Assembly (NCBI GenBank): GCA_030430425.1
Contig: JAUIFS010000003.1
Location: 1-38,317 of the forward strand
From: a bacterium
Lineage (GTDB): Bacteria; Patescibacteriota; Minisyncoccia; Phycocordibacterales; UBA918
Direction of reading: 5' to 3'
DNA length: 38,317 bases
Shown: positions 2,049 through 36,869 of the stretch, piece by piece
Layout: each line of letters starts with the position of its first letter
Numbering within the stretch: the stretch's first letter is position 1
The notes under the pieces: model-generated
Database searches by the model: none
The model's input: the letters and a program-made list of their open reading frames with translations, nothing else
What the model was told of the DNA's origin: nothing
Position numbers and translations under genes: made by a program

Positions 2049-2071
2049 GGGAGCTCGTAGTAAGGTTTATA

Positions 2072-2102
2072 GTAAAAACCGGACACGAAGTCTGGTTTTT
2101 AC
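2072..2102. terminator. Intrinsic terminator hairpin, probably bidirectional
   Basis: GTAAAAACCGGAC...GTCTGGTTTTTAC after the pil operon. Confidence 0.6.
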
Positions 2103-2106
2103 ATAA

Positions 2107-2299
2107 GGTGCCCCGGGAGGAATGATCCTGACGGTTTCTAAATTCGTCATACTTCCTCATTAAGAACCGCGGGACACGTCTCGCTTGTTCGTAAACTCAC
2201 ATCGCTCCGACGGTTCGATTCCTCAAAAGGTGCATTAGCACCTTTTTTCTGCGGGCACAAACAAAAATGGCACACCGAGGAGTGCTCATTTTTGTACTC
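2107..2299. repeat. tRNA-Arg-trailing element, copy a
   Basis: Direct tRNA 3'-end copy 2107-2123; inverted T-arm GGTTCGATTCCTC 2212-2224, hairpin 2225-2246, GGGCAC; closing hairpin 2261-2295. Confidence 0.75.
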
Positions 2300-2506
2300 G
2301 TGCCCCCGGGAGGAATCGAAGCTTACTTTTAAACGATACGAGCAAAATGGAAATTTATTTACATTTTTGAGTGAGTGAAGAAAGAAATTTATTTACAGCT
2401 TCAGTACAGGTTGTCACCATTTTCTTTGGAAAATGCTAGGCAACCTTTTCGATTCCGTGGACCAATTTAAAAAGCTGCCAGCAAGAAGCTGACAACTTTT
2501 TAAATC
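2300..2506. repeat. tRNA-Arg-trailing element, copy b
   Basis: Direct copy GTGCCCCCGGGAGGAATCGAA 2300-2320; inverted TTCGATTCC 2448-2456; closing hairpin before tRNA. Confidence 0.75.
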
Positions 2507-2508
2507 GG

Positions 2509-2580
2509 TGCCCCCGGGAGGAATCGAACCCCCATCTAAAGCTTAGAAGTCTCCTGTTTTATCCATTAAACTACAGGGGC
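2509..2580 (-). tRNA. tRNA-Arg (UCU)
   Basis: Acceptor GCCCCTG/CGGGGGC, anticodon loop CTTCTAA, T-loop TTCGATT; weak anticodon stem. Confidence 0.85.
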
Positions 2581-2814
2581 AAGTGAGAAAATAAGCAGAA
2601 ATGTGTCTCTATTTATTTTTCGAATAATGTTCCTGAAAGAAATTTTGTTGAAACGTTAGTGGAAACAAAAGTTTCTTACAGAAGGATCGTCATACAATAG
2701 CAAATTATTTAAATATAGAAAACAAAAAAGCGGCCCAGACAATCTCAAATTTTAAAAAATGAATATGATTGAAGATGTTGGGCGCGCTCTATGTTGTGTG
2801 TGATACCGTTCTTG

Positions 2815-2934
2815 CTACACTGATGCAAAATCGGTAATCAATTTTTTGCTCGGCGGTTGCCAAGGACAGCGTCCGAGAAAGTGGTGAGCAGCTGCAATGG
2901 CGCGTTTCACCATGTTTTGTTTTTCACGAGACAC
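2815..2934 (-). CDS. Possible 39-aa small protein or gene remnant (MSREKQNMVKRAIAAAHH...)
   Basis: AGAAAGGAG 6 nt before a GTG start; no recognisable homology. Confidence 0.25.
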   Translation of the reverse strand: MSREKQNMVKRAIAAAHHFLGRCPWQPPSKKLITDFASV

Positions 2935-3085
2935 AAGGTGCTCCTTTCTGTCACCATGTTGTGGTGACCTTATTTCACTATACCCCTATACACTAGAGGA
3001 AAATGTGGTGTGATGTGGATAAGTATCTCAGGACCTATAAATAGGAGTACAATAAAAGTAGATTACAAGATAATTTCACATATAT

Positions 3086-3325
3086 ATGGAATTAGTTTAT
3101 TTCGTGCTCGTTGGAGCAGCCGCTGGGTGGCTTGCGAGTATGCTCATGAATATCAATGCGAGCCTCGTACTGACAATCGTGCTCGGTATTGTAGGAGGTT
3201 TTGTTGGTGGATGGGGTCTGGGTCAACTGGGTGTTATGCTGCCGTGGGGAGTTGTAGGAGAAATTATTACCGCAGCAATCGGCGCGGTGGTACTTATCTT
3301 CCTCTATAAGTTGGTGACAAAGTAA
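3086..3325 (+). CDS. GlsB/YeaQ/YmgE family (transglycosylase-associated) membrane protein
   Basis: GAAAGWLA, LGIVGGFVGG and AIGAVVL glycine-rich TM pattern. Confidence 0.85.
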   Translation: MELVYFVLVGAAAGWLASMLMNINASLVLTIVLGIVGGFVGGWGLGQLGVMLPWGVVGEIITAAIGAVVLIFLYKLVTK

Positions 3326-3466
3326 TGACTAACGATCCTGTTTAATTAAAAGAACCGTAGCCTAGGCTACGGTTCTTTTATGATGAGTTTATAATCTGCT
3401 TCCGAAACGTGTACTGAGTTACAATAGTCACTTATTTTAAAATAATGGCAGTGTATAATTCCAATT

Positions 3467-3742
3467 ATGATTGATTTAATTTCAGGTCTATATTTGCTCA
3501 ATGCAGCAATAGTAATCGTGGCTTATGTGCCGCAAATTATTAAACTAAAAGCAATCAAGGAAAAGCCTAAAAATTTCTCTCTCCCAAGCTGGACGTTGTG
3601 GACGTATACTTCTATTGTTGCTTTTTTGTATGCAGTCTTTGTTATACAAGACACTATCTTAATTTTTGTTAATGCTTTGGCGTTGTTGAGCGTTTCGCTC
3701 GTTTTTATAATTGTTTTGTATAAGCATAGGAAATATTGCTAG
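3467..3742 (+). CDS. PQ-loop / SemiSWEET-like 3-TM protein
   Basis: AYVPQIIK PQ motif, three hydrophobic helices. Confidence 0.75.
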   Translation: MIDLISGLYLLNAAIVIVAYVPQIIKLKAIKEKPKNFSLPSWTLWTYTSIVAFLYAVFVIQDTILIFVNALALLSVSLVFIIVLYKHRKYC

Positions 3743-3805
3743 AATTTTTATATATATTTTGAAATGAATGTATAAACTAAGTGTGTAATTGGTATACTGA
3801 AAGGT

Positions 3806-4093
3806 ATGAGCACAATACAAGAACAAAAACTACGGGTAGAAACAGAGATCAGCAAATTGGAAGAAATGGGAGGTTCTCTAACAGGGAAAGCAAAGCGCAT
3901 GAGAGATACCGCGTTCACACGTTTCCCTGTTGTTTTTGCACTTCTCACTACTTTTGGACTTGTTGCTACATTTTATGGATTTGAAAAAGTTATTGATGAG
4001 ATTGCCTTTTTTTCAGAAAATCCAGTGACCGTGTTATCAGCAGGTTTGTTGGTTTTAGCATTAACCGGCACGTTGTATAAAAAACTTACGTAG
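3806..4093 (+). CDS. Hypothetical small membrane protein
   Basis: Two TM segments; TATACT -10 box just upstream of ATG. Confidence 0.65.
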   Translation: MSTIQEQKLRVETEISKLEEMGGSLTGKAKRMRDTAFTRFPVVFALLTTFGLVATFYGFEKVIDEIAFFSENPVTVLSAGLLVLALTGTLYKKLT

Positions 4094-4141
4094 TGAGGGG
4101 AGGATGGTGGGTTTTTATAAAATAAAAAAAGTGCCTGCCCT

Positions 4142-4305
4142 CGATGAGAGACTTTCTCGTTACAGGACCGGTACACCTTTTGGGTATTTCTGTTCGTTCC
4201 TCCAGAAATTCCGCAAAAGCTTTTCAAGTCTCCCGTAACAGTGCCTTTGCACTGTTACTTCATCGCGCACAAAAAGAAAAACGCCCCGGAGGGCGTCTTC
4301 TTTTT
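4142..4305. repeat. tRNA-Val-trailing element
   Basis: Direct copy CGATGAGAGACTT 4142-4154; inverted TTCAAGTCTC 4223-4232, hairpin 4235-4258, TCATCGCGCACA 4260-4271; closing hairpin. Confidence 0.8.
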
Positions 4306-4306
4306 G

Positions 4307-4379
4307 TGCGCGATGAGAGACTTGAACTCCCGACCTTCGCAGTGTAAATGCGCTGCTCTACCAACTGAGCTAATCGCGC
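4307..4379 (-). tRNA. tRNA-Val (UAC)
   Basis: GCGCGAT acceptor, AGCTCAGTTGGTAGAGC D-arm, loop TTTACAC, T-loop TTCAAGT. Confidence 0.92.
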
Positions 4380-4475
4380 GTAGTGTGTAATGTCTTACAT
4401 ACTCGCTATTTGGTATAAATGTCGTTTGCGCATTCCCATGTGTAAATGGTTCAAAGATATCCCATACCTCCTCAC

Positions 4476-4499
4476 CTCTACAACTGAGCTAATCGCGCG
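4476..4499 (-). repeat. Duplicate of the tRNA-Val 5' end
   Basis: CTCTACAACTGAGCTAATCGCGCG matches 4356-4380 with a 1-nt deletion. Confidence 0.8.
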
Positions 4500-4616
4500 A
4501 ACGATTATCTAAATACAAAATATCTGTATTCAGGTACGCAACATAGTATCGTTTTTTAAAAAAAAATCAATAGGTTTCATGGACGAATACATATTGCACG
4601 GTATACTACGTTCACT

Positions 4617-4892
4617 ATGATGGAAATGAATTGTGTTATTACGGGAAACGTACAGGGAGTTGCATACCGTGCGTACGCACAAGACTCTGCTGATACACTT
4701 GGATTGTGTGGTTGGGTCAAGAATGCTGCCGATGGCTCTGTACTCGTGTGTGCACAAGGAACACCAGACATGCTTAAAGAATATGTTGAGTATCTGCACG
4801 AAGGTTCATTACGTGCAGAGGTTGCGAGTGTATCAGTGGAATGGCAGTCACCCAAAAAAGTATTTACTGAATTTTCGATTATTCATATATGA
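4617..4892 (+). CDS. acyP: Acylphosphatase
   Basis: GNVQGVAYR and GWVKNAADGSV motifs. Confidence 0.9.
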   Translation: MMEMNCVITGNVQGVAYRAYAQDSADTLGLCGWVKNAADGSVLVCAQGTPDMLKEYVEYLHEGSLRAEVASVSVEWQSPKKVFTEFSIIHI

Positions 4893-4900
4893 GAAGAACT

Positions 4901-5683
4901 ATGTTTGGTTTTGGAAAAGAAAAAAAAGAAGACATTGAGATCGAGATCCTTTTTGAAAATGATGCTGTGTTGGTGATTAATAAGCCTGCAGGAATTATGG
5001 TGCATCCTGACGGTCATCATGAAGGAGTCACGGTTGTTGATTGGTTTTTGGAGAGGTGTCCCGAGGCAAAGGGAGTAGGGGAACCACAAAACAATAATAA
5101 AGGAGAACCGCTTGAGCGGTCAGGAGTGGTGCATCGCCTCGATACAGAAACTTCAGGGGTGCTTGTGCTTGCCAAAACGCAAGCATCGTTTGCACACTTA
5201 AAACGTCAGTTCCATGACCGGTTCGCAAAGAAAGAATATCGTGCGTTTGTGTATGGTCCGGTGCGTGAACGGTGGGGAACCATAGACAAGCCGATTGGTC
5301 GGAGTCCAAAGGACTTTAGAAAGCGTCTTGCGTCACAGGGGGCAAAAGGAAACTTGCGTGAAGCTGCTACTGACTGGGAATGTATTGGGCAGGGGAGATA
5401 CAACGATGAAGATTTCTCATATATGAAACTAAAGCCACGCACCGGACGGACGCATCAGATTCGCGTACATTTGCGTGCCATTGATCGTCCGGTTGTGGGA
5501 GATGTGCTCTATGCAGATTATTTGATGGAAAAGTCTAACAACCTTGACCTCAAGCGTATGGCACTGCATGCCCACACACTTGAGCTACTCCTTCCAGACG
5601 GTTCGGAAGAACGCTTTATCGCACCACTTCCGCTATGCTTTGAGGAGGCCGCGGAAAAAATTGCAGAAGAAGTAGGGGAATAA
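4901..5683 (+). CDS. RluA/RluD family RNA pseudouridine synthase
   Basis: NKPAG, VHRLDTETSG, TGRTHQIRVH, LHA motifs; start may be 4889. Confidence 0.93.
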   Translation: MFGFGKEKKEDIEIEILFENDAVLVINKPAGIMVHPDGHHEGVTVVDWFLERCPEAKGVGEPQNNNKGEPLERSGVVHRLDTETSGVLVLAKTQASFAHLKRQFHDRFAKKEYRAFVYGPVRERWGTIDKPIGRSPKDFRKRLASQGAKGNLREAATDWECIGQGRYNDEDFSYMKLKPRTGRTHQIRVHLRAIDRPVVGDVLYADYLMEKSNNLDLKRMALHAHTLELLLPDGSEERFIAPLPLCFEEAAEKIAEEVGE

Positions 5684-5775
5684 TGTTGCAGGGACTTCCT
5701 TTTTTTAAACTGTTGTGGTAGATTAGGGCACGTTTTATTGCGGCTTCTTAAGCATTTAATAAAGAAATAATTATT

Positions 5776-6417
5776 ATGAACACAGTAACAACAGGTGTAG
5801 CGGTCTCTCCCGTAAATATGGAAGATCGAAAGAGCATCGGCATTCGTGCGGGTGACACGGTACGCGTACACCAGAAAATTCAAGATAAAGGTAAGACACG
5901 TATTCAAGTTTTTGAAGGTGTGGTACTTGCGCGAAAACACGGAAACGAAGCAGGAGCTACGTTTACCGTACGAAAGGTAGCGAGTGGAGTAGGAGTGGAG
6001 AAAATCTTCCCACTGTACTCACCAAATATCGATAAAATCGAGATTGTGAAGCGAGCAAAGGTTCGACGAGCGAAGCTCTACTTCATCCGAGAGAAGGTAG
6101 CGCGACAAATCAAGCGACAGATGCGTCGTATGCGACTTGTATCTATTGCTTCTGAGTCTGAAGCAGAAGCTGCAGTTAAGGCTGAAGCAGAAGCAGCTGA
6201 AGCAGCTGCTAAAGCTGAGGAAGAAGCAGCAAAGGCTGCTGAGGAAGCAAAGAAGGCTGAAGAAGCAGAAGCAGCAAAGGCTGAAGCTGAAACAGCTACA
6301 GAAGACGCACCAGAAGCTGAAGTATCTGAAGAAGAGACTCCTGCTGAGGACACTCCTGAAGAAACTGCGACTGAAGAAGCTGCAGAAGAGGCATCTGAAG
6401 AAGAAAAGAAAGACTAA
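5776..6417 (+). CDS. rplS: 50S ribosomal protein L19 with long Ala/Glu-rich C-terminal extension
   Basis: [38 protein letters not shown]. Confidence 0.96.
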
Positions 6418-6426
6418 CTTTCTTAC

Positions 6427-6462
6427 ACAAAAAACGCATCGGCATACCGATGCGTTTTTTGT
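6427..6462 (+). terminator. Intrinsic terminator after rplS
   Basis: 16-bp stem with 4-nt loop and T tract. Confidence 0.75.
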
Positions 6463-6510
6463 TTATCTGCAAAAGGATATATTAATTGGTAGACATGATA
6501 TAGTAGAGGT

Positions 6511-7170
6511 GTGGGAAAGCGTGGCCCAAAACCAAAGGGAAGGGTAGATACAATGTGGCGACCAGAGTTAGCATATGCACTGGGTCTCATTACTGCTGAC
6601 GGCTCTTTATCAAAAAATGGACGCCATATTGATTTCACTTCAAAGGATATTGCTCAATTAGAGACTTACAGAAGCTGCCTTGGGATAGAAGAGATAAAAA
6701 TTGGTTCTAAACGTAGTACGCACAAGAATAATGTTTTGTACTACAGAGTTCAGTTTGGTGACGTATTGTTTTATCAGTGGCTCGTAGACAGAGGTCTGTC
6801 ACCCAATAAGTCTAAAATAATACAAAAAGTTGATGTACCAGGTAAATACTTTTTTGATTTTGTACGCGGTGAATGGGATGGAGACGGAACAATATATTGT
6901 TCAGAAGATAAACGTTGGAAAAACAGCTATGTTGTTAGTATTGCTTTTGCAAGTGGAAGTTTGGAGTTTTTGCAATGGTTGCAAAAAGAAATTAATAGAA
7001 GAATTGGCACTACTGGACATATTCAAGAAAATGTACGAGCAATGCAGCTACGTTATGCGCGAAAAGATTCAAAAAAACTTTTTGATGCTATGTTTTATGA
7101 CGATGATCTACCACACCTCTCAAGAAAGTTTGCAAAAGCTGAAAAAATCTTTAAAATGACGGGACTCTGA
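6511..7170 (+). CDS. Free-standing two-motif LAGLIDADG endonuclease-like protein
   Basis: AYALGLITADGS and FVRGEWDGDG motifs; no intein or intron flanks seen. Confidence 0.85.
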   Translation: MGKRGPKPKGRVDTMWRPELAYALGLITADGSLSKNGRHIDFTSKDIAQLETYRSCLGIEEIKIGSKRSTHKNNVLYYRVQFGDVLFYQWLVDRGLSPNKSKIIQKVDVPGKYFFDFVRGEWDGDGTIYCSEDKRWKNSYVVSIAFASGSLEFLQWLQKEINRRIGTTGHIQENVRAMQLRYARKDSKKLFDAMFYDDDLPHLSRKFAKAEKIFKMTGL

Positions 7171-7181
7171 AGGATAGAGAT

Positions 7182-7266
7182 GCCCAGGTGGCGAAATTGG
7201 TAAACGCGTACGCTTGAGGGGCGTATGACTTCGGTCTTGCTGGTTCAACTCCAGTCCTGGGCACCA
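7182..7266 (+). tRNA. tRNA-Leu (GAG)
   Basis: GCCCAGG/CCTGGGC acceptor, TACGC-TTGAGGG-GCGTA anticodon arm, long variable arm, encoded CCA. Confidence 0.95.
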
Positions 7267-7306
7267 AAAGAAAAAGTTCGAGGTTCAGCCTCGAACTTTT
7301 TCTTTT
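7266..7306 (+). terminator. Terminator after tRNA-Leu
   Basis: AAAAGAAAAAGTTCGAGG...CCTCGAACTTTTTCTTTT hairpin. Confidence 0.75.
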
Positions 7307-7320
7307 GCTATACTACAAAC

Positions 7321-7767
7321 ATGGAAACAATTAATGACTATTCATTCGGTGTGGTGCCTGTTCAAAAGGTAGGAGATGCATGGAAAGTGTTTCTTATACA
7401 TCAAATACCACGAAGAGGATCTCTCTTTTGGACCTTCCCAAAAGGACACCCAGAAGAAGGGGAAAGTCATGAAGAGACAGCGTTACGTGAGTTGCGTGAA
7501 GAGACAGGGCTTGTTCCTGATATTTTTAAGAAAGATGTAACGTTCACACAAGAGTACACCTTTATACATGATGGTCAGAGTATAGAAAAAAAAGTTGTCT
7601 ATTATTTGGGCGTTATTTCTACTGCAGAGTTTCAAATACAAATTGATGAAATCCATGAAGCGAAGTGGTGTACATTTGCCGAGGCAAGAGTATTATTAAC
7701 TCATGACATCGCGAAGCAGCTTCTGGATGAAGTTGCAGCGTATTTAGCAGATAACAATTCAGTATGA
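7321..7767 (+). CDS. NUDIX hydrolase (Ap4A hydrolase-like)
   Basis: Nudix box FPKGHPEEGESHEETALRELREETGL; start set at METIND after a TATACT box. Confidence 0.9.
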   Translation: METINDYSFGVVPVQKVGDAWKVFLIHQIPRRGSLFWTFPKGHPEEGESHEETALRELREETGLVPDIFKKDVTFTQEYTFIHDGQSIEKKVVYYLGVISTAEFQIQIDEIHEAKWCTFAEARVLLTHDIAKQLLDEVAAYLADNNSV

Positions 7768-7952
7768 AAACAATCACATGCTACGACTGTGAGAGCTCGT
7801 TTCAAGCAGAAACACGCGAAGAGATTCTTGATATTCTCTACGAGCACTATATGAAAAATCATCATAGTGTTATTACTGGCGCTTCAGACGAAGCAAAAAA
7901 ACAGTGGATGGAACAGTTTGAGAAAGACTGGTCTGCAGCTGAAGAAGTGTAA
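7764..7952 (+). CDS. Small metal-binding protein (DUF1059-like)
   Basis: CxxC...AETREE...H...H pattern; coupled to the Nudix stop. Confidence 0.55.
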   Translation: MKTITCYDCESSFQAETREEILDILYEHYMKNHHSVITGASDEAKKQWMEQFEKDWSAAEEV

Positions 7953-7961
7953 AAAAATAAT

Positions 7962-8570
7962 ATGAATACAAAAATAGTAGTACTAATAGGGGTGGCAGTA
8001 GTGGTACTTGGCGGAGGGTATATGCTAATGCAGTCATCAGACACTTCTGGTGGAGATGTCGCAAACAATACAGCACAGGAATCTCTTTCAGAACAGAACA
8101 GCGGCAGTGGTTCATTCCGGTCGCTTATGCAACGAGGTGAAAATATCACATGTACTTTTTCTTCCACTGCAGAAGGATCAGTCTCTAACGGAACATTCTA
8201 CTACGGCGACGGTATGTACCGTGTTGAAGCTGAGACAGAAACAGACGGGGTAACCTTTGTCTCAAACATGATTGGTCTTGCAGATAAATCATACATATGG
8301 GGCGGTACACCAGCAGGTGAGATGGCAGTCGTTATTGCAAATGATACGACTGAGATGGACGAGTCGGTACATGATTTTGCTGATACTCAGCAGGGGAGTG
8401 CGGTTGATCTGGAAGCAGGTGTAGAGTATGAGTGTGATGCATGGCGACCAGTTCCATCAATGTTTGTGCCGCCGAGTGACATTGAGTTTCTTGATATGCA
8501 GGCTATGATGCAAAACATGCCTGGTATGCCTGAAGGGTTTGCATTGCCTGCAGATATGCAAACACCGTAA
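7962..8570 (+). CDS. Hypothetical membrane-anchored exported protein
   Basis: N-terminal TM, CTF...C..W.P..SMFVPP.DIEF pattern. Confidence 0.7.
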   Translation: MNTKIVVLIGVAVVVLGGGYMLMQSSDTSGGDVANNTAQESLSEQNSGSGSFRSLMQRGENITCTFSSTAEGSVSNGTFYYGDGMYRVEAETETDGVTFVSNMIGLADKSYIWGGTPAGEMAVVIANDTTEMDESVHDFADTQQGSAVDLEAGVEYECDAWRPVPSMFVPPSDIEFLDMQAMMQNMPGMPEGFALPADMQTP

Positions 8571-8582
8571 CACTAAACTATT

Positions 8583-8644
8583 CCACGTACCTAAGCGGCA
8601 AAAATGGACGCAATTGCGTCCATTTTTGCCGCTTAGGTACGTGG
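8583..8644. repeat. Perfect 62-bp palindrome between convergent genes
   Basis: 31-nt arm CCACGTACCTAAGCGGCAAAAATGGACGCAA followed directly by its exact reverse complement. Confidence 0.9.
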
Positions 8645-8657
8645 GTTTTGGTATATG

Positions 8658-9065
8658 TTACGAAAATAGTATCGTGCCGAGTAGATAACTGATGGCAGCA
8701 ACGGTAGCAGTGAGTACGGTACCCCAGACGATATCGACAAGTGTGAGTAACAGTGGCCAGTTTCGTATTGTTGCAAGATTGGTTAGGTCGTAGGTTGCGT
8801 ATGCAAAGAATCCAAACAGTGCTCCCCAGAGCACCGCTTTCATGAACGATTGTGCTTCGAGCGCAGGTTGCACCGCAAAGATGATGATACCAACGATGTA
8901 TAAGAGGTAAAAAATAATTGCTGCCGCCCAGTTCACTGGTCCCAGCAAGAAACCAAGTTGTGATTGGTAGAACTTGTTAGCAATGAGACCCAGCCAGAGC
9001 ATATCGATAATAAAAAAGACGGGAATAGTTATGAGGTAGAGATAGGTACGTTGTATGAGTGTCAT
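8658..9065 (-). CDS. DUF2177 family membrane protein
   Basis: IDMLWLG, YATYDLTNLAT, DIVWG motifs. Confidence 0.85.
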   Translation of the reverse strand: MTLIQRTYLYLITIPVFFIIDMLWLGLIANKFYQSQLGFLLGPVNWAAAIIFYLLYIVGIIIFAVQPALEAQSFMKAVLWGALFGFFAYATYDLTNLATIRNWPLLLTLVDIVWGTVLTATVAAISYLLGTILFS

Positions 9066-9067
9066 AG

Positions 9068-9463
9068 CTATATATTAAGATACGTGATTGTTAGTTGAAG
9101 CACCGTTGCAAAGGATACCCATGCTACATACGGTATGTTTATGTACGTCACGAAAGGAACATAGGGATATATTACATACAGTGCCCAAAGCAGTGTTGCT
9201 AACACCAAGCATATATCTATTGCCGCAAGTGTATTATTTTGGAGTCCAAACTGCAGGGGTGTAAACGCAAAATTACATAACAGATTAAGGATAAAAGGGA
9301 GTAGTACTACAAAGGGAATGGTCCCTTTAAAATATAAATAGAAAACGTACCCAAAAGAAACGGCTATGATAGCGTACAGCACACCCCATACTGGTCCAAA
9401 AAGCCATGCTGGTGGTGCCCACGCAGGCTTTATGAGTGTTTGATACCAAGTGTATTGATCCAT
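9068..9463 (-). CDS. tspO: TspO/MBR tryptophan-rich sensory protein
   Basis: WY..LIKPAWAPPAWLFGPVW and PYVAWVSFATVL; start set at MDQYTW. Confidence 0.9.
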   Translation of the reverse strand: MDQYTWYQTLIKPAWAPPAWLFGPVWGVLYAIIAVSFGYVFYLYFKGTIPFVVLLPFILNLLCNFAFTPLQFGLQNNTLAAIDICLVLATLLWALYVIYPYVPFVTYINIPYVAWVSFATVLQLTITYLNI

Positions 9464-9591
9464 TCTTTTTAGTGTAGCATTGTAGGTAGAAAATTTTTCA
9501 ATTTTGAACATCTGGTAGGGAAAAGAAAACACCTCGCATTGTTTGATATACAGTATCTTCATTGCGAGGTGTAGTTGCAGAATATTTGTTT

Positions 9592-10101
9592 TTAGTACGC
9601 ACTTCCACGCATATCACGAGCGGCGTGGTAGGCAGCATTTAATGGCTGCAGAATCAACAGCACACAATAGATTAACCCAGGGAGCGCGACAAACCATAAC
9701 CACTGCGAGTTGTCAGGCTGTTGCTGTCGCAAGAGTTCTATGAGCGCCCTAATGGTAGTAAACGCGCTTTCATGCAGAAAATTTGCCGCTATTTGACTAG
9801 CAAAGTGAGTGCCAAAACTCTCTCCAATGATTAAGAGTACTGCAACCCAGTAGATTATCGGCGCAAGAAGCCCGTACAAGAACGTAAAATTAAAAGCGTC
9901 CCTCCCGTGGCGTTGTGCTGCTGGCTCAGTATGAATAAACCAAAAAAGGAACGGTATTACATACCAAACAATAATAACAAATCCTGCTGTAGCCAAGCTT
10001 GAACCCGTAGGAGTAAAAATAACAACTGCAGATCCCAGAGCAACTAAAAGGTGCATAAGGGCAACGAGTGATGATCTTTGAGTATTTTTGTTACTGGACA
10101 T
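9592..10101 (-). CDS. Hypothetical membrane protein (DUF4870-like)
   Basis: ALMHL, HGRDAFNF motif, several TMs; AAGGAG SD. Confidence 0.55.
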   Translation of the reverse strand: MSSNKNTQRSSLVALMHLLVALGSAVVIFTPTGSSLATAGFVIIVWYVIPFLFWFIHTEPAAQRHGRDAFNFTFLYGLLAPIIYWVAVLLIIGESFGTHFASQIAANFLHESAFTTIRALIELLRQQQPDNSQWLWFVALPGLIYCVLLILQPLNAAYHAARDMRGSAY

Positions 10102-10278
10102 CGCGAAGTCTCCTTGTCAGATGTGAGGTGCTCAATGAACTTTCGTGAGAAAGACCGTTTAAGTTCTAGTCGAACAATACTGAAATATAATATAATGTCA
10201 ACAGAGGAGGGAGAATGAATATTTTGATGATTTTAATGATCAGAAATGGCGGTTTTTTTGTTTGTACTGGCACTTATA

Positions 10279-10392
10279 GGACTGTGTGATATATTCCTCA
10301 CATCAGTCCGCCGTTCGATTCCGGACGAAAGCTATACGCTTTCTTAGTCACCCAAAACACAAAAGACCCCAGAAGGGGTCCGTGTGTTTTGG
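10279..10392. repeat. Relic tRNA-His-type element, distal end of array
   Basis: GTTCGATTCCGG, hairpin 10327-10343, TAGTCACCCA, closing hairpin 10352-10392. Confidence 0.7.
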
Positions 10393-10527
10393 ACACGTAC
10401 TGTCTCTCGAGTGGAGCCAATTTGAAGAATTGTGTCTTGCTTAGCTAAGCGACGCCAGGGTTTGTTTCAGGTGATGAGGGAGAAAGTGGTTCCATTGGGT
10501 CGGTGGGTATGGTGAAGAAGAATACAT

Positions 10528-10556
10528 TTGCTTAATTTTGTACAATATGTACAATA
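10528..10556 (+). promoter_or_regulatory. TA promoter/operator with tandem TGTACA palindromes
   Basis: TTGCTT-16nt-TACAAT; TGTACAATA repeated twice over the -10. Confidence 0.6.
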
Positions 10557-10561
10557 TAGGT

Positions 10562-10813
10562 ATGAAAACTATCACTACTACCAATGCTCGTAAACAAATC
10601 GCACAGCTTATTAATGCTGTGAGGGATACGGGGGATGTGTTTGCAATAGGGCGTCGTAATCGTCCAGAAGTGCTCCTCATAAAATTTCCTGCTGAGTACA
10701 ACAGCGAATTAAATGATATTACAAACGTGAACACCTATTCAGAGAGCTTTTCGTTTTTAGAGAATGAACCAGAGACATATTCAGTAAATGATTTAAAGAA
10801 ACGATATGTATAA
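10562..10813 (+). CDS. Phd/YefM-family antitoxin
   Basis: MKTITTTNARKQIAQLINAV...IGRRNRPEVLL; overlaps the toxin start. Confidence 0.8.
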   Translation: MKTITTTNARKQIAQLINAVRDTGDVFAIGRRNRPEVLLIKFPAEYNSELNDITNVNTYSESFSFLENEPETYSVNDLKKRYV

Positions 10814-11132
10814 GAAAGGGACTATTGTGTTGGTCCCTTTTCCGTTTACCGATTTGTCAGGTAGCAAAGTGCGACCAGCGGTGATTGTTTCTGATGGAAA
10901 GGTTGGGTCTGACGTTGTACTTTTGTTTATCACTTCACAGTTAAAATTAAAAGGGAGACATATTGTCCAAGTCGTTCCAGATCAAGAAAATGGCATAAAA
11001 ACCAAGTCTAAAATAGTTTGTTCTAAAATTGCCACTTTGGAAGCAAAAATCATACTCGGTGAGTTAGGGGTGCTGGCACCACCAGTTTTAAAAAGTATTG
11101 ATATTGAGCTCAAAAAAGTCTTGGGCCTATAA
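10806..11132 (+). CDS. PemK/MazF-family toxin
   Basis: GTIVLVPFPFTDLSGSKVRPAVIVS...ITS motif. Confidence 0.9.
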   Translation: MYKKGTIVLVPFPFTDLSGSKVRPAVIVSDGKVGSDVVLLFITSQLKLKGRHIVQVVPDQENGIKTKSKIVCSKIATLEAKIILGELGVLAPPVLKSIDIELKKVLGL

Positions 11133-11142
11133 CTTTTTATCG

Positions 11143-12023
11143 GGGCGACGTCGTAGATTGAGAAAGTGCGGGGCACTTTTGCAAGAGGTTGCCAGCTGCG
11201 CCTGCAGCGACAACCTGAACAGTCTCTGTATAGAGATGTTCGAACTGTGTTTGAGTAATTACAGGATGAAACTGTTTACATTCCAGTTTTATCTAACTAA
11301 ATTACTTCTGATGATTCAGCAATCTCAAGCATTTCTCTTACGTCTTCATCTTTCAAACACTCCTCTACGTTACTCCATAGTTCAAGGTTAACCTTTGCCC
11401 ATTTTAGGTACGACTGCTTTGCTTTATCAGTGTAGAAATATATTCCACTTTCCATAAGGTGTGTTTGTTCATCACATATTTTATGGGCAAGTTTAGCAAC
11501 ATCTACGTTGTTCTCCTCAATATACTTACTGGCAAATAATATCGGAGTCACTGGCAATGCTTTAAAAAGAGTATCAGCATCACTCAATGCTTTTGACTCT
11601 AGAGAAATATCACCATGTCGATTAGTCGTGCATTCGTCCATTATGATTTTTTCAATTTTCTCTATTTCTTCTGATGAGTAACCAGCTTTTGAAAGAATCT
11701 CCTCTCGCAGACCTTTCCCTGCTTCTGGTTTAGAGTTAGATTCGACAATGTAATTCAAATCATGTACCAAAGCGGCCGACTGAACGAGAAACTCGTTCGC
11801 TCCCAATTCCTTAGCAAATACAATGCTTTTGTTTGTAACAAAAGTGATGTGATGCCATCCATGAAACAACAGTCCATCCTGATGTTGTTGGTATAAGGTC
11901 ACAAGTTGACTTCGCAATTGGTTAATTTTTTCTGTTTCAGACATGATAAGAGTATATCAGTTCGAGCTTCCCATTAGGGTAGCTGTGAGAGCGCTATAAA
12001 TATACTTCAAAATGTTGGGCGAC
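11143..12023. mobile_element. Putative integrase-less cassette A (HD gene) bounded by GGGCGAC cores
   Basis: Cores at 11143-11149 and 12017-12023; both ends homologous to cassette B. Confidence 0.65.
11297..11944 (-). CDS. HD-domain phosphohydrolase
   Basis: FHGWHH, ALVHD, LSDADTL motifs. Confidence 0.85.
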   Translation of the reverse strand: MSETEKINQLRSQLVTLYQQHQDGLLFHGWHHITFVTNKSIVFAKELGANEFLVQSAALVHDLNYIVESNSKPEAGKGLREEILSKAGYSSEEIEKIEKIIMDECTTNRHGDISLESKALSDADTLFKALPVTPILFASKYIEENNVDVAKLAHKICDEQTHLMESGIYFYTDKAKQSYLKWAKVNLELWSNVEECLKDEDVREMLEIAESSEVI

Positions 12024-12192
12024 TACCGGGGTAATCTTTCATTACATGAACTGTACACCTTTTGGCTAGATTGTTTCGCTATGCTCACAATCTATCTCAA
12101 AAGCTTTTCGATTCGCGCAACGCTTTTCAGAGAAAAGTTGCGCCCAGTAGTCGCCCAAATGCAAAAAACTCCCGAAGGAGTTTCTGCATTCA
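12017..12192. repeat. tRNA-His-trailing element between cassettes
   Basis: GGGCGACTACCGGG; inverted TTCGATTC, hairpin 12115-12143, CCAGTAGTCGCCCA; closing hairpin 12158-12190. Confidence 0.8.
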
Positions 12193-12876
12193 GGGCGACG
12201 TCGTAGAGGACGTTCGAACTGTTTTTGAAGAGAGGAATGATACGACTGTCTTTATCCCATTACTGCATAAGGTTGTTTAACTTTCGAACAGTGTTTACAT
12301 TACGAACTGTCATATTCTTATAAATCTCTGTACCAATTATGTCGTTCATCTTGCTTTTTCCATAATCTTTCTTTTTCAAATGCCAGACCACTGCACCGTC
12401 AATATAGAGCAGTGTGTCTACCTTGGGATTTGTAACAATTTTCTTGAGCGTACCTCGGTTTGCAAAACTGTTCCAAAGAAACATAACATCGGTCTTGTAT
12501 TCTTTGTCGTTGATCCAGTCGGCTGGTATCTCCTTATTTACCTTATCTATGCTTTTTTTGCCACGGAGCACAACAGGGATATCAAGTTCAAAATTTTTCT
12601 TGATGGCTCTTTCAATCTCATTAGCTATCTTCGTGGTGTCACTTTTCTTAGTTTCAAAGATTACATTCCCTGAATTTATATAGGTAGCGACATTGGTGTA
12701 CCCAAGTGACTCAAAGCAAATTTTGAGTCTAGCCATTTCTATCTTATTGTTACCGCCAACGTTGATTCCACGAAGAAGTGCGACGTACTTTTGCATACTA
12801 AAAGTATACCAGTTCTACCTTCTCGGTATGGTATCTAGAAAACCCTTATGATACTTACTTCAAAATGCTGGGCGGC
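12193..12876. mobile_element. Putative integrase-less cassette B (DUF1697 gene)
   Basis: GGGCGAC 12193-12199 and GGGCGGC 12870-12876; ends homologous to cassette A. Confidence 0.65.
12260..12796 (-). CDS. DUF1697 family protein
   Basis: YVALLRGINVGG.NKI.M, TYINSGNVIF, T.RN.NTV.KL. Confidence 0.9.
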   Translation of the reverse strand: MQKYVALLRGINVGGNNKIEMARLKICFESLGYTNVATYINSGNVIFETKKSDTTKIANEIERAIKKNFELDIPVVLRGKKSIDKVNKEIPADWINDKEYKTDVMFLWNSFANRGTLKKIVTNPKVDTLLYIDGAVVWHLKKKDYGKSKMNDIIGTEIYKNMTVRNVNTVRKLNNLMQ

Positions 12877-13068
12877 TACTGGGAAGTTCGGTCACGAATC
12901 ACTAAGTATATTGGTTCGTCTTCGACTCCAAATCTACTAAGTGTTCTCGACCCCGACTCATTCGCGGCAAGGCCGCATCATTCCGTCTTTCGATTCCCGG
13001 ACAGAAGCAAAGCAGTTTGCTTCTTTAGCCGCCCCATACGCAAAAATCCCCGAAAGGGGATTTTGCTT
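12869..13068. repeat. tRNA-His-trailing element, proximal
   Basis: TGGGCGGCTACTGGGAA; inverted TTCGATTCCCGG 12989-13000, hairpin 13003-13024, TAGCCGCCCCA; closing hairpin 13040-13066. Confidence 0.8.
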
Positions 13069-13070
13069 TG

Positions 13071-13143
13071 GGCGACTACCGGGAATCGAACCCGAACTTC
13101 CGGTACCACAAACCGGAGCACTAACCGTTATACTATAGTCGCC
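13071..13143 (-). tRNA. tRNA-His (GUG)
   Basis: G-1:C73, GCGACTA/TAGTCGC acceptor, CCGGT-TTGTGGT-ACCGG arm, TTCGATT loop. Confidence 0.95.
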
Positions 13144-13240
13144 ATACAGCAGTATATAAAATACCGTGTGCGCATATTTATACCTATTTTTAGTACAAAT
13201 GTCGAGTATTTTCTTGTGTGAATGCGCTACAATATTGTAG

Positions 13241-17768: not shown

Positions 17769-18163
17769 AAAGTTCTGGGAGACCTTTTTAGGGCCTTGCC
17801 TGGTATTTCTTGAAAACTTAGAAAGAAATATCGACAAGATTGAAACTGGGAGTTTCAGAAGGTTGCCAGCTGCGAATGCAGTGACAATCTCTACTGAACT
17901 TGTAAAGTTTTTAGTCCCTCTAATAAGGGAAACTAAGTTTTCTACAGGTGTCACGTAATACTCTTTGAGGATACGGTATACTGGTAAACATACGAGAAAG
18001 AGGTATCTATCCGGGATTGTGAGACGCGACTTGCAGTCCCCGCTAGGTACCTCTTTTTCTATCTCTGTAGGTTGCAGGAGGTAACGGTGTACACTTGGCA
18101 TTTTTTCAGACAAGAGTACAATAACCACACAAAATAATTACAATCGTTTAAGGAATCATTACT

Positions 18164-23286: not shown

Positions 23287-23492
23287 ACGACCTTTACCGA
23301 GCTTTTGAGGCAGGTTCGACCGGAGGGAGAAATATGTCCAAAAGGTACACAGTCTCTGTAAGAAGTTAAAGCGATACAGACCATAATCCAAACAAAGCCT
23401 CTCGTTAGTTGACGGGAGGCTTTGTTTTTTGGTATAACAGCTACTGGAAATCATTCCAGGCATTGTTCACTTGACAGAAAGGAAGGTCTTCT

Positions 23493-34699: not shown

Positions 34700-36373
34700 A
34701 TGAAGGAACAGATACAGCAGAAGATACAAACAGTGCTTGATGAACTTGGCGTTACCGACGTCCCTTTTACCGTGGAGCATCCAGCCGATCTTTCGCATGG
34801 CGACTACGCAAGTAATGTTGCACTTGTTGCATCGAAGCAGCTTGGGAAAAATCCGCGCGAACTCGCGGAGGAAATTGTGTCTAAACTCGACGAGTTTGAA
34901 ACAACTATTGCAGGTCCTGGGTTTATTAACGTCCACGCACCACGGAGTTTTTTTGTAGACCATGTTGCGCAAAGTATTGCTGCTGGAACAAACTGGGGCA
35001 AGAGTGAATTGTTGGCAGGAAAGAAGTATGTAGTTGAGTACACTGACCCAAACCCATTCAAGGAGTTTCATGTTGGGCACCTTTTTACTAACTCTGTAGG
35101 TGAATCTGTTTCTCGGCTTATAGAGTTTGCAGGTGCTGATACGAAGCGACTGTGCTACCAAGGTGATGTAGGCATGCATGTCGCCCATGCAGTATGGGGG
35201 ATGCAACAAATGGGACTTACCCCTGAAAGTAATTTTACCGCTGGTGACCTTGGAAAAGCCTACGCACTTGGCGCCACGGCATATAAAGAAGATGAGCGTG
35301 CGCAGACAGCTATCAAAGCTTTAAATAAAAAAATATACGAACGTTCAGATGAGGTAGTGAATGCCTTGTATGACAAAGGTCGTGAAGTATCACTGGCGTA
35401 CTTCGAAACTATCTACGCAATTGTTGGTACGCACTTTGATGAGTATTTCTTTGAAAGTGAAGCAGGACCAAAAGGAAAAGAGCTTGTGTTGGGTAATCCA
35501 AAGGTTTTTTCAGATAGTGACGGTGCAAAGGTATTTGAGGGAGAGCAGTATGGGCTGCATACTCGAGTTTTTCTTAACTCGGAAGGTTTGCCGACTTATG
35601 AAGCAAAAGAGCTTGCATTGGCTCAGATGAAAGAAGATCGTCTTGGTGTATATGACCACTCAATTATTTCTACATCAAATGAAATTGTTGCATACTTTAA
35701 GGTACTTAAGAAAGCAATGAGCTTTGTATATCCAGAGTTGGAAAAGAAGACAGAACATATCGGTCACGGTACGGTACGCCTCACAACAGGGAAGATGTCT
35801 TCACGGACAGGGGAGGTGATTGCAGCAATTGATTTCATTGAAGAAATAACAGATACAGCACAAGAGCGCATTGCAAGCGCAACACCCGAGCTTGCGCAGG
35901 ACAGAGCGCTAGCACAGCAAATTGCGCTTGGGGCTATTAAGTATGCGACTCTCAAAGGGAACATGCTACAAGATATGGTATTTGATAAGGAGGCAGCACT
36001 TTCTTTTGAAGGAGCATCAGGTCCGTACTTGCAGTACACGCATGCGCGTATTTGCTCAGTGCTTGCAAAAGCTGCTGATGCGGGAATAGTGCCTAGTACA
36101 GATGCAGCACCAGAAGAAGCATATGCTCTTGAGAAGATACTCTATCGATTTCCTGAAGTGGTAGAAGAAGCGATGCTGCACCGTGCACCGCACAAAGTTG
36201 CACAGTATCTCACAGAGCTTGCAGGTATGTTTAACTCATTCTATGCACAAGAAAAAATTGCCGATCCGTCTGATCCTCACGCACCCTATAAAGCACGTGT
36301 TGCACAGTCAGTTGCGCAGACTTTGAAGAATGGCTTGTGGTTGCTTGGAATAGAGGCACCAGAGCGCATGTAA
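34700..36373 (+). CDS. argS: Arginine--tRNA ligase
   Basis: HGDYASN, AGPGFIN, PNPFK.FHVGH, KMSSR.G, GPYLQY.HAR, PERM C-terminus. Confidence 0.96.
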   Translation: MKEQIQQKIQTVLDELGVTDVPFTVEHPADLSHGDYASNVALVASKQLGKNPRELAEEIVSKLDEFETTIAGPGFINVHAPRSFFVDHVAQSIAAGTNWGKSELLAGKKYVVEYTDPNPFKEFHVGHLFTNSVGESVSRLIEFAGADTKRLCYQGDVGMHVAHAVWGMQQMGLTPESNFTAGDLGKAYALGATAYKEDERAQTAIKALNKKIYERSDEVVNALYDKGREVSLAYFETIYAIVGTHFDEYFFESEAGPKGKELVLGNPKVFSDSDGAKVFEGEQYGLHTRVFLNSEGLPTYEAKELALAQMKEDRLGVYDHSIISTSNEIVAYFKVLKKAMSFVYPELEKKTEHIGHGTVRLTTGKMSSRTGEVIAAIDFIEEITDTAQERIASATPELAQDRALAQQIALGAIKYATLKGNMLQDMVFDKEAALSFEGASGPYLQYTHARICSVLAKAADAGIVPSTDAAPEEAYALEKILYRFPEVVEEAMLHRAPHKVAQYLTELAGMFNSFYAQEKIADPSDPHAPYKARVAQSVAQTLKNGLWLLGIEAPERM

Positions 36374-36395
36374 AGTGAACAAATGCCGCAGGGCA

Positions 36396-36718
36396 TATTG
36401 TGAACTTTCACAGGACAGTTCAGGTGTATTTGAGGTCCTAGCGAAAATACACCGAACTGGTATCGGGAAAAGGAATATAAAAACATCACTATGTTCCAGT
36501 GATGTTTTTTAACTTCTTTCTATCTTCACTCACTCGGAAATGAATAAACTAACGTTATATTCATTTTTCTCGTATCGCTCGATAGTAATCTGAACAAAGG
36601 AGCAAAGCGACTATTGTGAAGGTTCACAGGACAGTTTCGGCAGATTCGAGCCTTCCTAGCGAAAATCTACCAAACTGGTATCGGGAAATGAGCAAAGGAG
36701 TGTAACGACTATTGTGAA
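36396..36718. repeat. Two ~75-bp structured direct repeats plus a partial third
   Basis: 36396-36470 vs 36612-36688 share TATTGTGAA, TTCACAGGACAGTT, CCTAGCGAAAAT, AACTGGTATCGGGAAA. Confidence 0.8.
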
Positions 36719-36869
36719 TTTTGTTCCCGATTTGTTCTGCCTTTGGGCAAATCGCTGGAACTCGAAGTAGAAAATGATCACTCTGACTGATGGTCTTTCT
36801 GGACATTGACTCTATGCATTTGTATGGTATTTTTCAATATAAAGAGATCTTTAGAGAAAGGGTTGTACT

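Follow-up and report, generated by a model that had tools for sequence, protein, structure and literature searches.

A family of small structured modules with tRNA-matched arms at tRNA genes of Patescibacteria

Introduction

Repetitive extragenic palindromic (REP) sequences are constant in sequence and flank their RAYT gene, and MITEs (miniature inverted-repeat transposable elements) are bounded by terminal inverted repeats that belong to the element and by short, direct target duplications of fixed length. Fungal mitochondrial double-hairpin elements (DHEs) are small protein-less hairpin modules, integron attC and CTX-phage attP(+) are recombination sites formed by a folded single strand, and TnpB omega-RNA and IS110 bridge RNA are guide RNAs of mobile elements. 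Repetitive hairpin-forming elements (RHE) have been reported from sponge mitochondria (PMC2800124). According to two further sources, a rebuilt target gene accompanied by a displaced fragment is the classical signature of integration into tRNA genes (PMC4383910), and an attB located in a T-loop is known for mycobacteriophage Ms6 (PMC1762012). Here we analyze a 38,317-nt stretch of DNA (the window), which is contig C40 of a 726,046-bp Patescibacteria genome (G000; 48 contigs, GC 44%, 95% complete), and the structured non-coding units that follow its tRNA-Arg, tRNA-Val and tRNA-His genes and whose ends match the adjacent tRNA. Six such elements had been proposed from the letters of the window alone (the original prediction), with a non-coding, retargetable element or a guide-like RNA as their suggested nature.

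Results

Read in the direction of the tRNA, a unit comprises the rebuilt 3' end of the tRNA gene, a hairpin terminator, an inverted arm, a core and the displaced original 3' end of the gene. The inverted arm is a reversed copy of the acceptor 3' strand and T-arm of the tRNA (positions 54-73), mostly interrupted by a small variable hairpin (H1), and the direct copy at the far end covers positions of about 54-73. The core sits at the tip of a hairpin with a locus-specific stem. All six elements of the original prediction are present with the layout ascribed to them, the direct copies of the tRNA 3' ends lie where they had been placed (2300-2320 and 2111-2123 for Arg, 4142-4154 for Val, 12017-12030 and 12868-12883 for His), and the inverted copies are split by a hairpin in five of the six, the exception being the unit Arg-1, in which the inverted arm is degenerate. 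One correction concerns the core, for two unrelated cores are in use in the same slot: type A or A' in the units Arg-1, Val and His-2, and type B in Arg-2, His-1 and a relic.

A search of a species-level GTDB genome collection with a degenerate A-core pattern returned at least 117 stretches, and a regular-expression scan of G000 and 117 loci yielded 164 cores, among which three (at L044, L069 and L090) are likely chance matches in coding sequence; these are still counted among the 164, and were excluded from the co-orientation, neighbour-gene and nearest-identity counts and from the 149-hit model search described below. Class A1, defined by a T-loop complement directly before the H2 hairpin of the core, accounts for 77 of the 164 cores, and in 57 of these a tRNA on the same strand lies at most 300 nt upstream. 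These 57 tRNA-linked units come from G000 and other genomes and span 14 isotypes. The isotype-specific last 16 nt of the tRNA are repeated directly downstream of the core in 40 of them, compared with 1 of 285 wrong-tRNA controls, and the same 16 nt are found inverted upstream of the core in 28, compared with 2 of 285. The inverted arm thus matches its adjacent tRNA far above the control level, as had been anticipated, although not in every unit. One core of 60-90 nt serves at least 14 isotypes in a uniform register. The earlier description of a non-coding family with a constant structured scaffold and ends that match the host tRNA is supported.

The tRNA-Glu locus, compared over eleven relatives, reveals what the direct copy is. 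In the congeners G006 and G018 the site is empty, and the tRNA gene ends in ...CACCA and is followed by the flank, which in G018 is AAGAGAGAGCTGG. In G007, which holds one unit, and in G002, which holds two, the last direct copy is followed by the same AAGAGAGAGCTGG flank, with the CCA kept between the two in G007, and the working tRNA stops at the discriminator and runs into the terminator of the unit. Since empty and filled sites share CCA and flank, the gene's original 3' end has been displaced and now forms the direct arm, its replacement having come with the insert; the arm is no part of a guide, contrary to what had been proposed for it. The tRNA-Glu CCA is encoded in the two empty congener alleles and not in the filled ones, so that, judging from these alleles, insertion may be a route to CCA loss. 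The block inserted at a tRNA gene brings a fresh set of positions 54-73, a terminator of its own, those 20 nt again in reverse complement, and the core, which is closed by pairing of the inverted copy with the displaced 3' end. A mirror form, found at tRNA-Arg and tRNA-Gln in five other genomes, displaces the 5' part instead, in the order copy of positions 1 to about 53, H1-H2-H3, TATAAT-like box and intact tRNA. Taken together, the 3'-displacing and mirror 5' forms locate the break between positions 53 and 54, within the T-loop. Orthologous tRNA sites are variously empty, filled with an A, A' or B unit, or doubly filled. Among the tRNA-Glu units of four congeners the bases of the terminator and of H1, the two inverted pieces, the direct copy and the flank form a frame that is kept, and the hairpin tips and the H2 stem sequence differ; in G004 the tRNA shares one T-stem change with its direct copy and with the inverted arm, in which a G.U pair is tolerated.

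At all six informative G.U positions, including G3.U70 of tRNA-Ala, the inverted arm is the Watson-Crick complement of the tRNA 3' strand, and the complement of the discriminator precedes the arm in 21 of 32 units. The inverted arm is therefore templated on the 3' segment, which, along with the occurrence of the same cores between arbitrary arms away from tRNAs, speaks against its role as a retargetable guide. An origin as a copy of the tRNA 5' strand is ruled out by the same six positions. Two further origins of the arms were considered and rejected. An older palindrome of inverted and direct copies, invaded later by cores, is contradicted by the lack of core-less pairs: none was found among 155 tRNAs scanned, 9 of which have both copies, with a smallest gap of 99 nt among the 7 that could be measured. 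Fold-back or template switching in situ predicts that the terminator of the unit equals the original terminator, and fails because the two differ.

The A/A' core was modeled with RNAalifold on 36 copies. Its H2 hairpin comprises AGGUUG/CAACCU as the outer helix, an internal loop conserved as CCN/GA and an inner stem of 8 bp, and is followed by a G(U/A)AC(U/A)G linker and by H3, a 5-bp hairpin with a GUA triloop. Over 149 model hits, 97.2% of paired cells are complementary, compared with 75.6% in shuffles, compensatory double changes occur in 20 of 20 pairs, and the covariation score is 0.538 versus 0.145, a value reached by none of 500 shuffles; slid controls score 0.10 at most. Independent covariation signal is carried by the inner stem and H3. 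On the tRNA-sense strand G.U combinations outnumber A.C combinations 65 to 14. Both the compensatory changes and the wobble strand asymmetry of a structured single-stranded element are thus present, the former as counted on a model-fitted alignment, and these substitution patterns indicate that the main core is a conserved fold of the single tRNA-sense strand. The covariation and the conservation of the scaffold across 14 isotypes are in line with the original prediction, which had named their absence as a reason to discard it. An interpretation of H3 as a T-loop-motif mimic was rejected, since its closing pair covaries and the loop is therefore a GUA triloop. A hammerhead or other known small ribozyme was likewise set aside, as inspection shows a mismatch in junction order and in core nucleotides, and Rfam gives no match.

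Cores are not restricted to tRNA genes, and about half of those in G000 lie away from them. Class A2 accounts for 42 of the 164 cores, 38 of which have no nearby tRNA. At such non-tRNA sites A2 cores lie between arbitrary, locus-specific inverted arms, and their copies fold into a closing stem made by these arms plus H1, H2 and H3. Non-tRNA copies are co-oriented with the upstream open reading frame (ORF) in 46 cases versus 18, based on a crude ORF call. Modules also nest in one another at hairpin tips, as seen for a module of a further type (type C) in the H3 loop of Arg-1, for an A2 core in a block resembling the tRNA-His 3' end, and for an A2 core within a B-like unit.

The distribution of the family is patchy and multi-copy. 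In G000, about 39 type A/A' and 13 type B cores were detected with nhmmer, and a covariance model built on the A core (R1) gives 36 matches. An own 3'-end copy, defined as a 14-mer with at most one mismatch within 700 nt downstream of the tRNA, follows 15 of the 31 tRNA genes, and several others, judged by eye, have cores or split arms. R1 matches occur in 18 of 18 congeners (4-73 copies each). Further afield, 7 of 12 additional families in the order have 2-8 copies, and there are none in 150 genomes drawn evenly over the phylum, under stricter filters with 31 candidates scored per genome that still retain 27 hits in G000. Among 80 of the at least 117 A-core matches, nearly all are labelled Patescibacteria (Saccharibacteria, Kaiser-, Nomura-, Pacei-, Parcu- and Campbellbacteria). 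One core of the window shares 93% identity with a copy from a metagenome-assembled genome (MAG) of Paceibacteria, and the nearest neighbours of G000 cores mostly sit at other isotypes. Full units were also observed on several contigs of a MAG labelled Acidimicrobiales (L029, L058, L067) and of one labelled Patiriisocius (L031, L052, L063, L084, L100); units under such labels could be mis-binned Patescibacteria contigs or real transfer.

Within the window, the six elements and their three regenerated target genes, tRNA-Arg(TCT) at 2507-2580, tRNA-Val(TAC) at 4306-4379 and tRNA-His(GTG) at 13070-13142, all lie on the minus strand. The tRNA-Arg gene ends at the discriminator and does not encode a full CCA; across G000 CCA is encoded by only 3 of 31 tRNA genes (Gly-GCC, Ala-TGC and Leu-GAG). 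Arg-1 (2300-2506, type A core; R1 match 2376-2454, 62.3 bits) consists of a terminator hairpin (2464-2506), the degenerate inverted arm (2447-2463), H2 and the start of H3 (2397-2446), the nested type C module (2321-2396), which lies within the H3 loop directly after GTAA, and a direct copy of tRNA positions 54-73 (2300-2320) that is identical at 21 of 21 nt. Arg-2 (2107-2299, type B core), the outer and older member of the tandem pair, has its terminator at 2258-2299, an inverted acceptor piece at 2250-2257, H1 at 2222-2249, an inverted T-loop piece at 2211-2221, the B core at 2125-2210 and a direct copy at 2107-2124 in which one C has been lost; the original terminator lies beyond it (2067-2106, minus strand). 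In the Val unit (4142-4305, type A' core; R1 match 4143-4229) the terminator (4270-4305), inverted acceptor (4259-4269), H1 (4235-4258), inverted T-arm (4222-4234), core (4156-4221) and direct copy (4142-4155) follow one another in the same order.

Two full units are linked to tRNA-His. His-1 (12869-13069, type B core) has its terminator at 13037-13069, inverted acceptor at 13025-13036, H1 at 13003-13024, inverted T-arm at 12987-13002, B core at 12890-12986 and direct copy at 12870-12889, and both of its arms share one acceptor variant (C/G) that is absent from the resident tRNA-His. His-2 (12017-12192, type A' core; R1 match 12025-12113) has its terminator at 12160-12192, inverted acceptor at 12143-12159, H1 at 12117-12142, inverted T-loop at 12106-12116, core at 12033-12105 and direct copy at 12017-12032. 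The core sequence said to be common to Val and His-2 is indeed shared, with GTACACCTTTTGG exact at 4171 and 12053 (2 matches versus 0.07 expected) and CAAAAGCTTTTC exact at 4214 and 12098, and the His ends co-vary as described, with GGGCGACTA/TAGTCGCCC in one copy and GGGCGGCTA/TAGCCGCCC in the other. The suspected relic (10279-10392) is real: it is a truncated type-B unit that retains a hairpin-split inverted arm and a terminator and has no adjoining tRNA end. A simple terminator scan of the minus strand flagged only the Val and relic hairpins, the remaining A/T-flanked hairpins missing its rule.

Four further cores of the window lie on the plus strand. A type A2 core (H1-H2-H3) at 11139-11250 (R1 match 11178-11249) is located inside the His-3'-end-like block GGGGCGACGTCGTAGA...GTTCGAACTGTG, an arrangement also found in two more genomes (L053, L091), and a core-less twin of this block, GGGCGACGTCGTAGAG-GAC-GTTCGAAC, is present 1 kb away at 12190-12225 on the same strand as an 'empty' version of the site. 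A partial A'-like core (17794-17838) and an A core (17852-17922) occupy the 3' spacer of a ribonucleotide reductase (RNR) gene in co-orientation; the orthologous RNR-nrdB spacer of G052 (about 110 nt) holds no core, at a divergence too high to set insertion boundaries. An A'-type core at 23292-23378 lies shortly behind the stop codon of a co-oriented plus-strand reading frame, as judged by eye. Small cargo genes lie between successive tRNA-His 3'-end copies in the region 10538-12796, namely a Phd/YefM-PemK/MazF-like pair (10538-11132), an HD-domain gene (11297-11944) and a DUF1697 gene (12260-12796), and the tRNA-His direct copy together with 12 nt of flank is present twice, at 12003-12030 and 12856-12883. 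Two further repeat modules were observed off tRNA loci at 36267-36841 of the window and at C2:9264-9796 of G000, where they comprise type C (..TCACTCACTC..TCGTATCGCT..) and a GGACAGTT..AACTGGTATCGGGAAA block.

A recombinase, transposase or reverse transcriptase co-occurring with the units had been suggested as something to look for, and none tracks the family. The ORFs neighbouring 114 loci contain no recombinase, transposase or integrase in the 25 largest clusters, as judged by eye on the first 70 residues of one example each, with no family search. Matches to the reverse transcriptase family PF00078 and to the TnpB family PF07282 are both absent from the 95%-complete G000, so that neither a retroelement nor a TnpB/omega-RNA system is indicated. 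The genome encodes one tyrosine recombinase (PF00589), on contig C25 and away from any unit; of the two hallmarks of a tRNA-gene island, the regenerated target with displaced fragment is present, and an integrase inside or beside the element is not. Two Y1 (HUH) genes (PF01797) were found in G000, one IS200-like and coding for 144 aa on C36, the other RAYT-like and coding for 235 aa on C44. The latter (C44:28300-29100, L003:1300-2007) has inverted palindromes built on CCAAGGGTAGCCCTTGG on both sides, with 8 palindrome sites in G000. The IS200-like TnpA gene (C36:3751-4185, L002:1468-1902) adjoins a tRNA-Asn array, of which the core near this gene is a part, and has hairpins just upstream, one of them TTCAG-looped by eye. 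In that array, tRNA-Asn(GTT) (C36:2844-3173, minus strand; locus L181:1694-1933) carries a 255-nt insert in its anticodon loop that scores 77.2 bits against the Rfam group I intron model, and two partial copies of its 5' end lie upstream of it, one of them followed by an A2 core.

Cores are absent, by pattern scan, from five other Y1 loci, the IS200-like loci of G007, G009, G015 and G017 and a 224-aa Y1 locus of G002, and the hairpins beside the gene at the loci of G007, G009 and G017 have TTCAG/TTAAG-type loops. Ten genomes have cores and no Y1 hit, and G028 has four Y1 hits and no core. Core counts are higher where a congener has a Y1 hit (median 17, n=13) than where it has none (5.5, n=6), in a comparison among kin that are not independent. 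The IS200-like TnpA was rejected as a partner on account of the core/Y1 mismatch over genomes and the core-free Y1 loci. The units also depart from the definitions of the corresponding repeat families: from REP/REPIN-RAYT, as the palindrome on either side of the RAYT-like gene is a different one and ten genomes with cores have no PF01797 hit; from IS200/IS605-derived PATEs, as the five other Y1 loci have no core; and from MITEs, as the arms are locus-specific and copy the target and what is duplicated is the stretch between the breakpoint and the tRNA end. The A-core pattern is absent from 2.9 million viral contigs of IMG/VR, and a BLAST search with one unit against phage and plasmid collections gave no match. 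At the gathering threshold, Rfam 15 matched only four tRNAs in the window; in E-value mode over 2050-4400 and 10200-13200 no hit on the units approached its threshold, and the best non-tRNA hit, which overlaps tRNA-His, reached 34.8 bits against a threshold of 52. The units therefore match no Rfam family, an outcome on which the original prediction had depended, and no description of the family was found in the literature searched, supplements being outside that search.

Discussion

We interpret the units as multi-copy, protein-less, structured insertion modules that are shared horizontally among scattered Patescibacteria and invade hairpin tips or T-loops, and assign this interpretation a probability of roughly one half. 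Under the proposed mechanism, modules would invade the tips of hairpins, be it the T-loop of a tRNA gene, a terminator-like hairpin or the loop of another module, and the invading form would be a single strand of sense polarity, either RNA or single-stranded DNA, acting through host functions. An insertion would survive only where it regenerates the tRNA, which is essential and single-copy. The arms would be copied from the target at or after insertion, in which case they would track each tRNA as a consequence of copying. Whole units may pass between genomes by recombination within conserved tRNA sequence, as suggested by the acceptor variant that the His-1 arms share and the resident tRNA lacks, and cores may be swapped among units by ectopic recombination. 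Several points weigh against this interpretation. No mechanism formulated so far yields both a 20-nt inverted copy and a new, unrelated terminator at a new isotype. No transposition or excision event, no free form and no transcript was seen, none of the 13 sequencing runs with the stretch being an RNA run, and the contigs of four DNA runs gave no presence/absence joint: they yielded short pieces of low depth, identical to the window, and joints from repeat to repeat. The covariation was counted on a model-fitted alignment in which the outer H2 helix is partly fixed by the search pattern. Finally, the G.U excess, the 46 versus 18 co-orientation and the concerted G004 change fit a host-useful RNA equally well, and a regenerated gene with a displaced fragment is what a tyrosine integrase produces, one such gene being present in G000.

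This last point leads to the alternative that the units are relics or micro-islands of tyrosine-integrase integration at the tRNA T-loop, with the core as a conserved attP arm. It was fairly remarked in the original prediction that ordinary att duplications give only direct repeats, yet the regenerated gene and displaced fragment are the classical tRNA-gene integration signature, and tandem arrays with the oldest member outermost and the supply of terminators or promoters are known hallmarks too (PMC4383910; for T-loop attB, PMC1762012). The real cargo genes between the His 3'-end copies of the window (DUF1697, HD-domain and Phd/PemK-like pair) would also suit such islands. We nevertheless consider this explanation unlikely, given that a single short core in uniform register serves so many isotypes, that the sole recombinase gene lies on C25, that cores also occur off tRNAs between arbitrary inverted arms, that a 20-nt inverted copy is foreign to known attP sites, and that neither the viral contigs, the phage and plasmid collections nor, by eye, the neighbouring ORF clusters at 114 loci point to an integrase-bearing source.

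A host-useful, cis-acting RNA of 3' trailers or 3' untranslated regions, engaged in end protection, processing or termination/insulation and spread by duplication, would have its closing stem selected to pair with the adjacent tRNA-derived sequence. Such a role would account for the structure kept by compensatory change, for the excess of G.U over A.C on the sense strand, for the co-orientation of non-tRNA copies with the upstream ORF, for the joint T-stem change of G004 with its tolerated G.U, and for the terminator that is always part of the unit. It is difficult to reconcile with the patchy distribution (0 of 150 genomes in the phylum sample), with an 18-fold spread in copy number among congeners, and with nested insertions and orthologous sites that are empty, A-, A'- or B-filled or doubly filled; an essential function would not be missing from most relatives, and we regard this explanation, too, as improbable.

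The guide of the original prediction, taken here as a programmable one whose inverted arm would steer a nuclease or recombinase by base-pairing with the tRNA or its gene, staggered cuts at both ends of the guide-target duplex leaving the 20-nt duplication as their footprint, appears very doubtful. The constant scaffold is indeed abutted by a 20-nt antisense segment, the duplicated block is as long as that segment, with its end falling exactly on the discriminator, and the antisense arm reaches 1-2 nt beyond the acceptor in 21 of 32 units. Nonetheless, a recognisable inverted acceptor piece is missing in 25 of the 57 tRNA-linked units, and the inverted copy was scored in only 28; the mirror 5' form duplicates 53 nt with no antisense arm of that part; no effector was found (no TnpB, reverse transcriptase or recurrent neighbour protein, IS110-type genes not having been searched); and the rewriting of the guide for a new tRNA has no explanation. 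Since copying of the target explains the matching, a guide is not needed. Least credible is that the Y1 transposases of G000 mobilise the units in trans as REP/REPIN-like or PATE-like repeats, for, even though both PF01797 genes are present, the RAYT-like one between inverted palindromes, strand-specific single-strand hairpins are the substrates of such enzymes and Y1-positive congeners (kin that are not independent) have more cores, the ten Y1-free carriers, the core-free G028, the five core-free Y1 loci with their TTCAG/TTAAG-looped hairpins at three of them, the different palindrome (8 sites) of the RAYT-like gene and the locus-specific arms, so dissimilar to REP sequences, all argue otherwise.

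Returning to the insertion modules, a bolder version of our interpretation would view them as a class of nucleic-acid parasites of Patescibacteria, without proteins, that seek out hairpin tips and most of all the tRNA T-loop, restore the gene they interrupt, copy the closing stem anew from the target, and thereby rewire tRNA ends through a new terminator or promoter and the loss of the encoded CCA; to spread between distant lineages they would need no more than host replication and recombination functions and the universal conservation of tRNAs. This we offer tentatively. In this 726-kb genome, about half or more of the tRNA genes have had their 3' ends replaced by modules, and a selfish or semi-domesticated element would thus keep renewing gene ends that are usually taken as fixed (terminator, encoded CCA and sometimes promoter). 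Parts of the Candidate Phyla Radiation harbour the family widely, and it is highly structured and outside Rfam. It would provide a tractable case of a non-coding element that targets an essential, conserved gene without killing it, and may also explain how such elements cross deep lineages. Should a host protein bind the internal loop of H2, which is invariant, or the GUA hairpin, it would reveal a novel activity in recombination or RNA processing, in organisms that have very few known mobile-element enzymes. For annotation, the units yield false partial tRNAs and may cause assembly breaks at tRNA loci in MAGs of this kind.

Among known systems, mobile-element guide RNAs resemble the units in placing a constant scaffold beside a segment that matches the flanking target, and differ in that here TnpB is absent (IS110-type genes were not searched), the displaced target itself makes up the 3' matching segment, and units often lack the antisense one. 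With attC and attP(+) the units share two inverted segments about 60-100 nt apart that fold in one strand, in a fold that would recreate the target duplex; the core is unrelated, however, no IntI-type or dedicated recombinase was found, and attC R/L boxes were not seen by eye. MITEs, too, are small, non-autonomous and present in many copies, have inverted ends and show insertion polymorphism, whereas the inverted ends of the units copy the target and the duplicated block reaches the tRNA end (20 nt, or 53 nt in the mirror form). REP/REPIN sequences are similarly short, extragenic, hairpin-forming, multi-copy and strand-specific, often lie directly after genes, and have a counterpart in the RAYT-like gene of G000; the stems of the units are locus-specific, in contrast, that gene goes with another palindrome, and there are carriers with no Y1 gene. 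The mitochondrial RHE and DHE are also protein-less small hairpin modules that enter the intergenic spacers of compact genomes by no known mechanism; they have other hosts and unrelated sequences, and neither tRNA regeneration nor target-templated arms are known to be described for them. The tRNA/tmRNA islands of tyrosine integrases (Islander) likewise show a target split and rebuilt by the insert, a displaced fragment at the far end, a T-loop breakpoint, tandem arrays and both 3'- and 5'-displacing forms. Unlike those islands, the units measure only 130-210 nt with neither gene nor integrase, use one core for at least 14 isotypes, carry an inverted copy of the displaced fragment, and have cores that also occupy hairpins away from tRNA genes.

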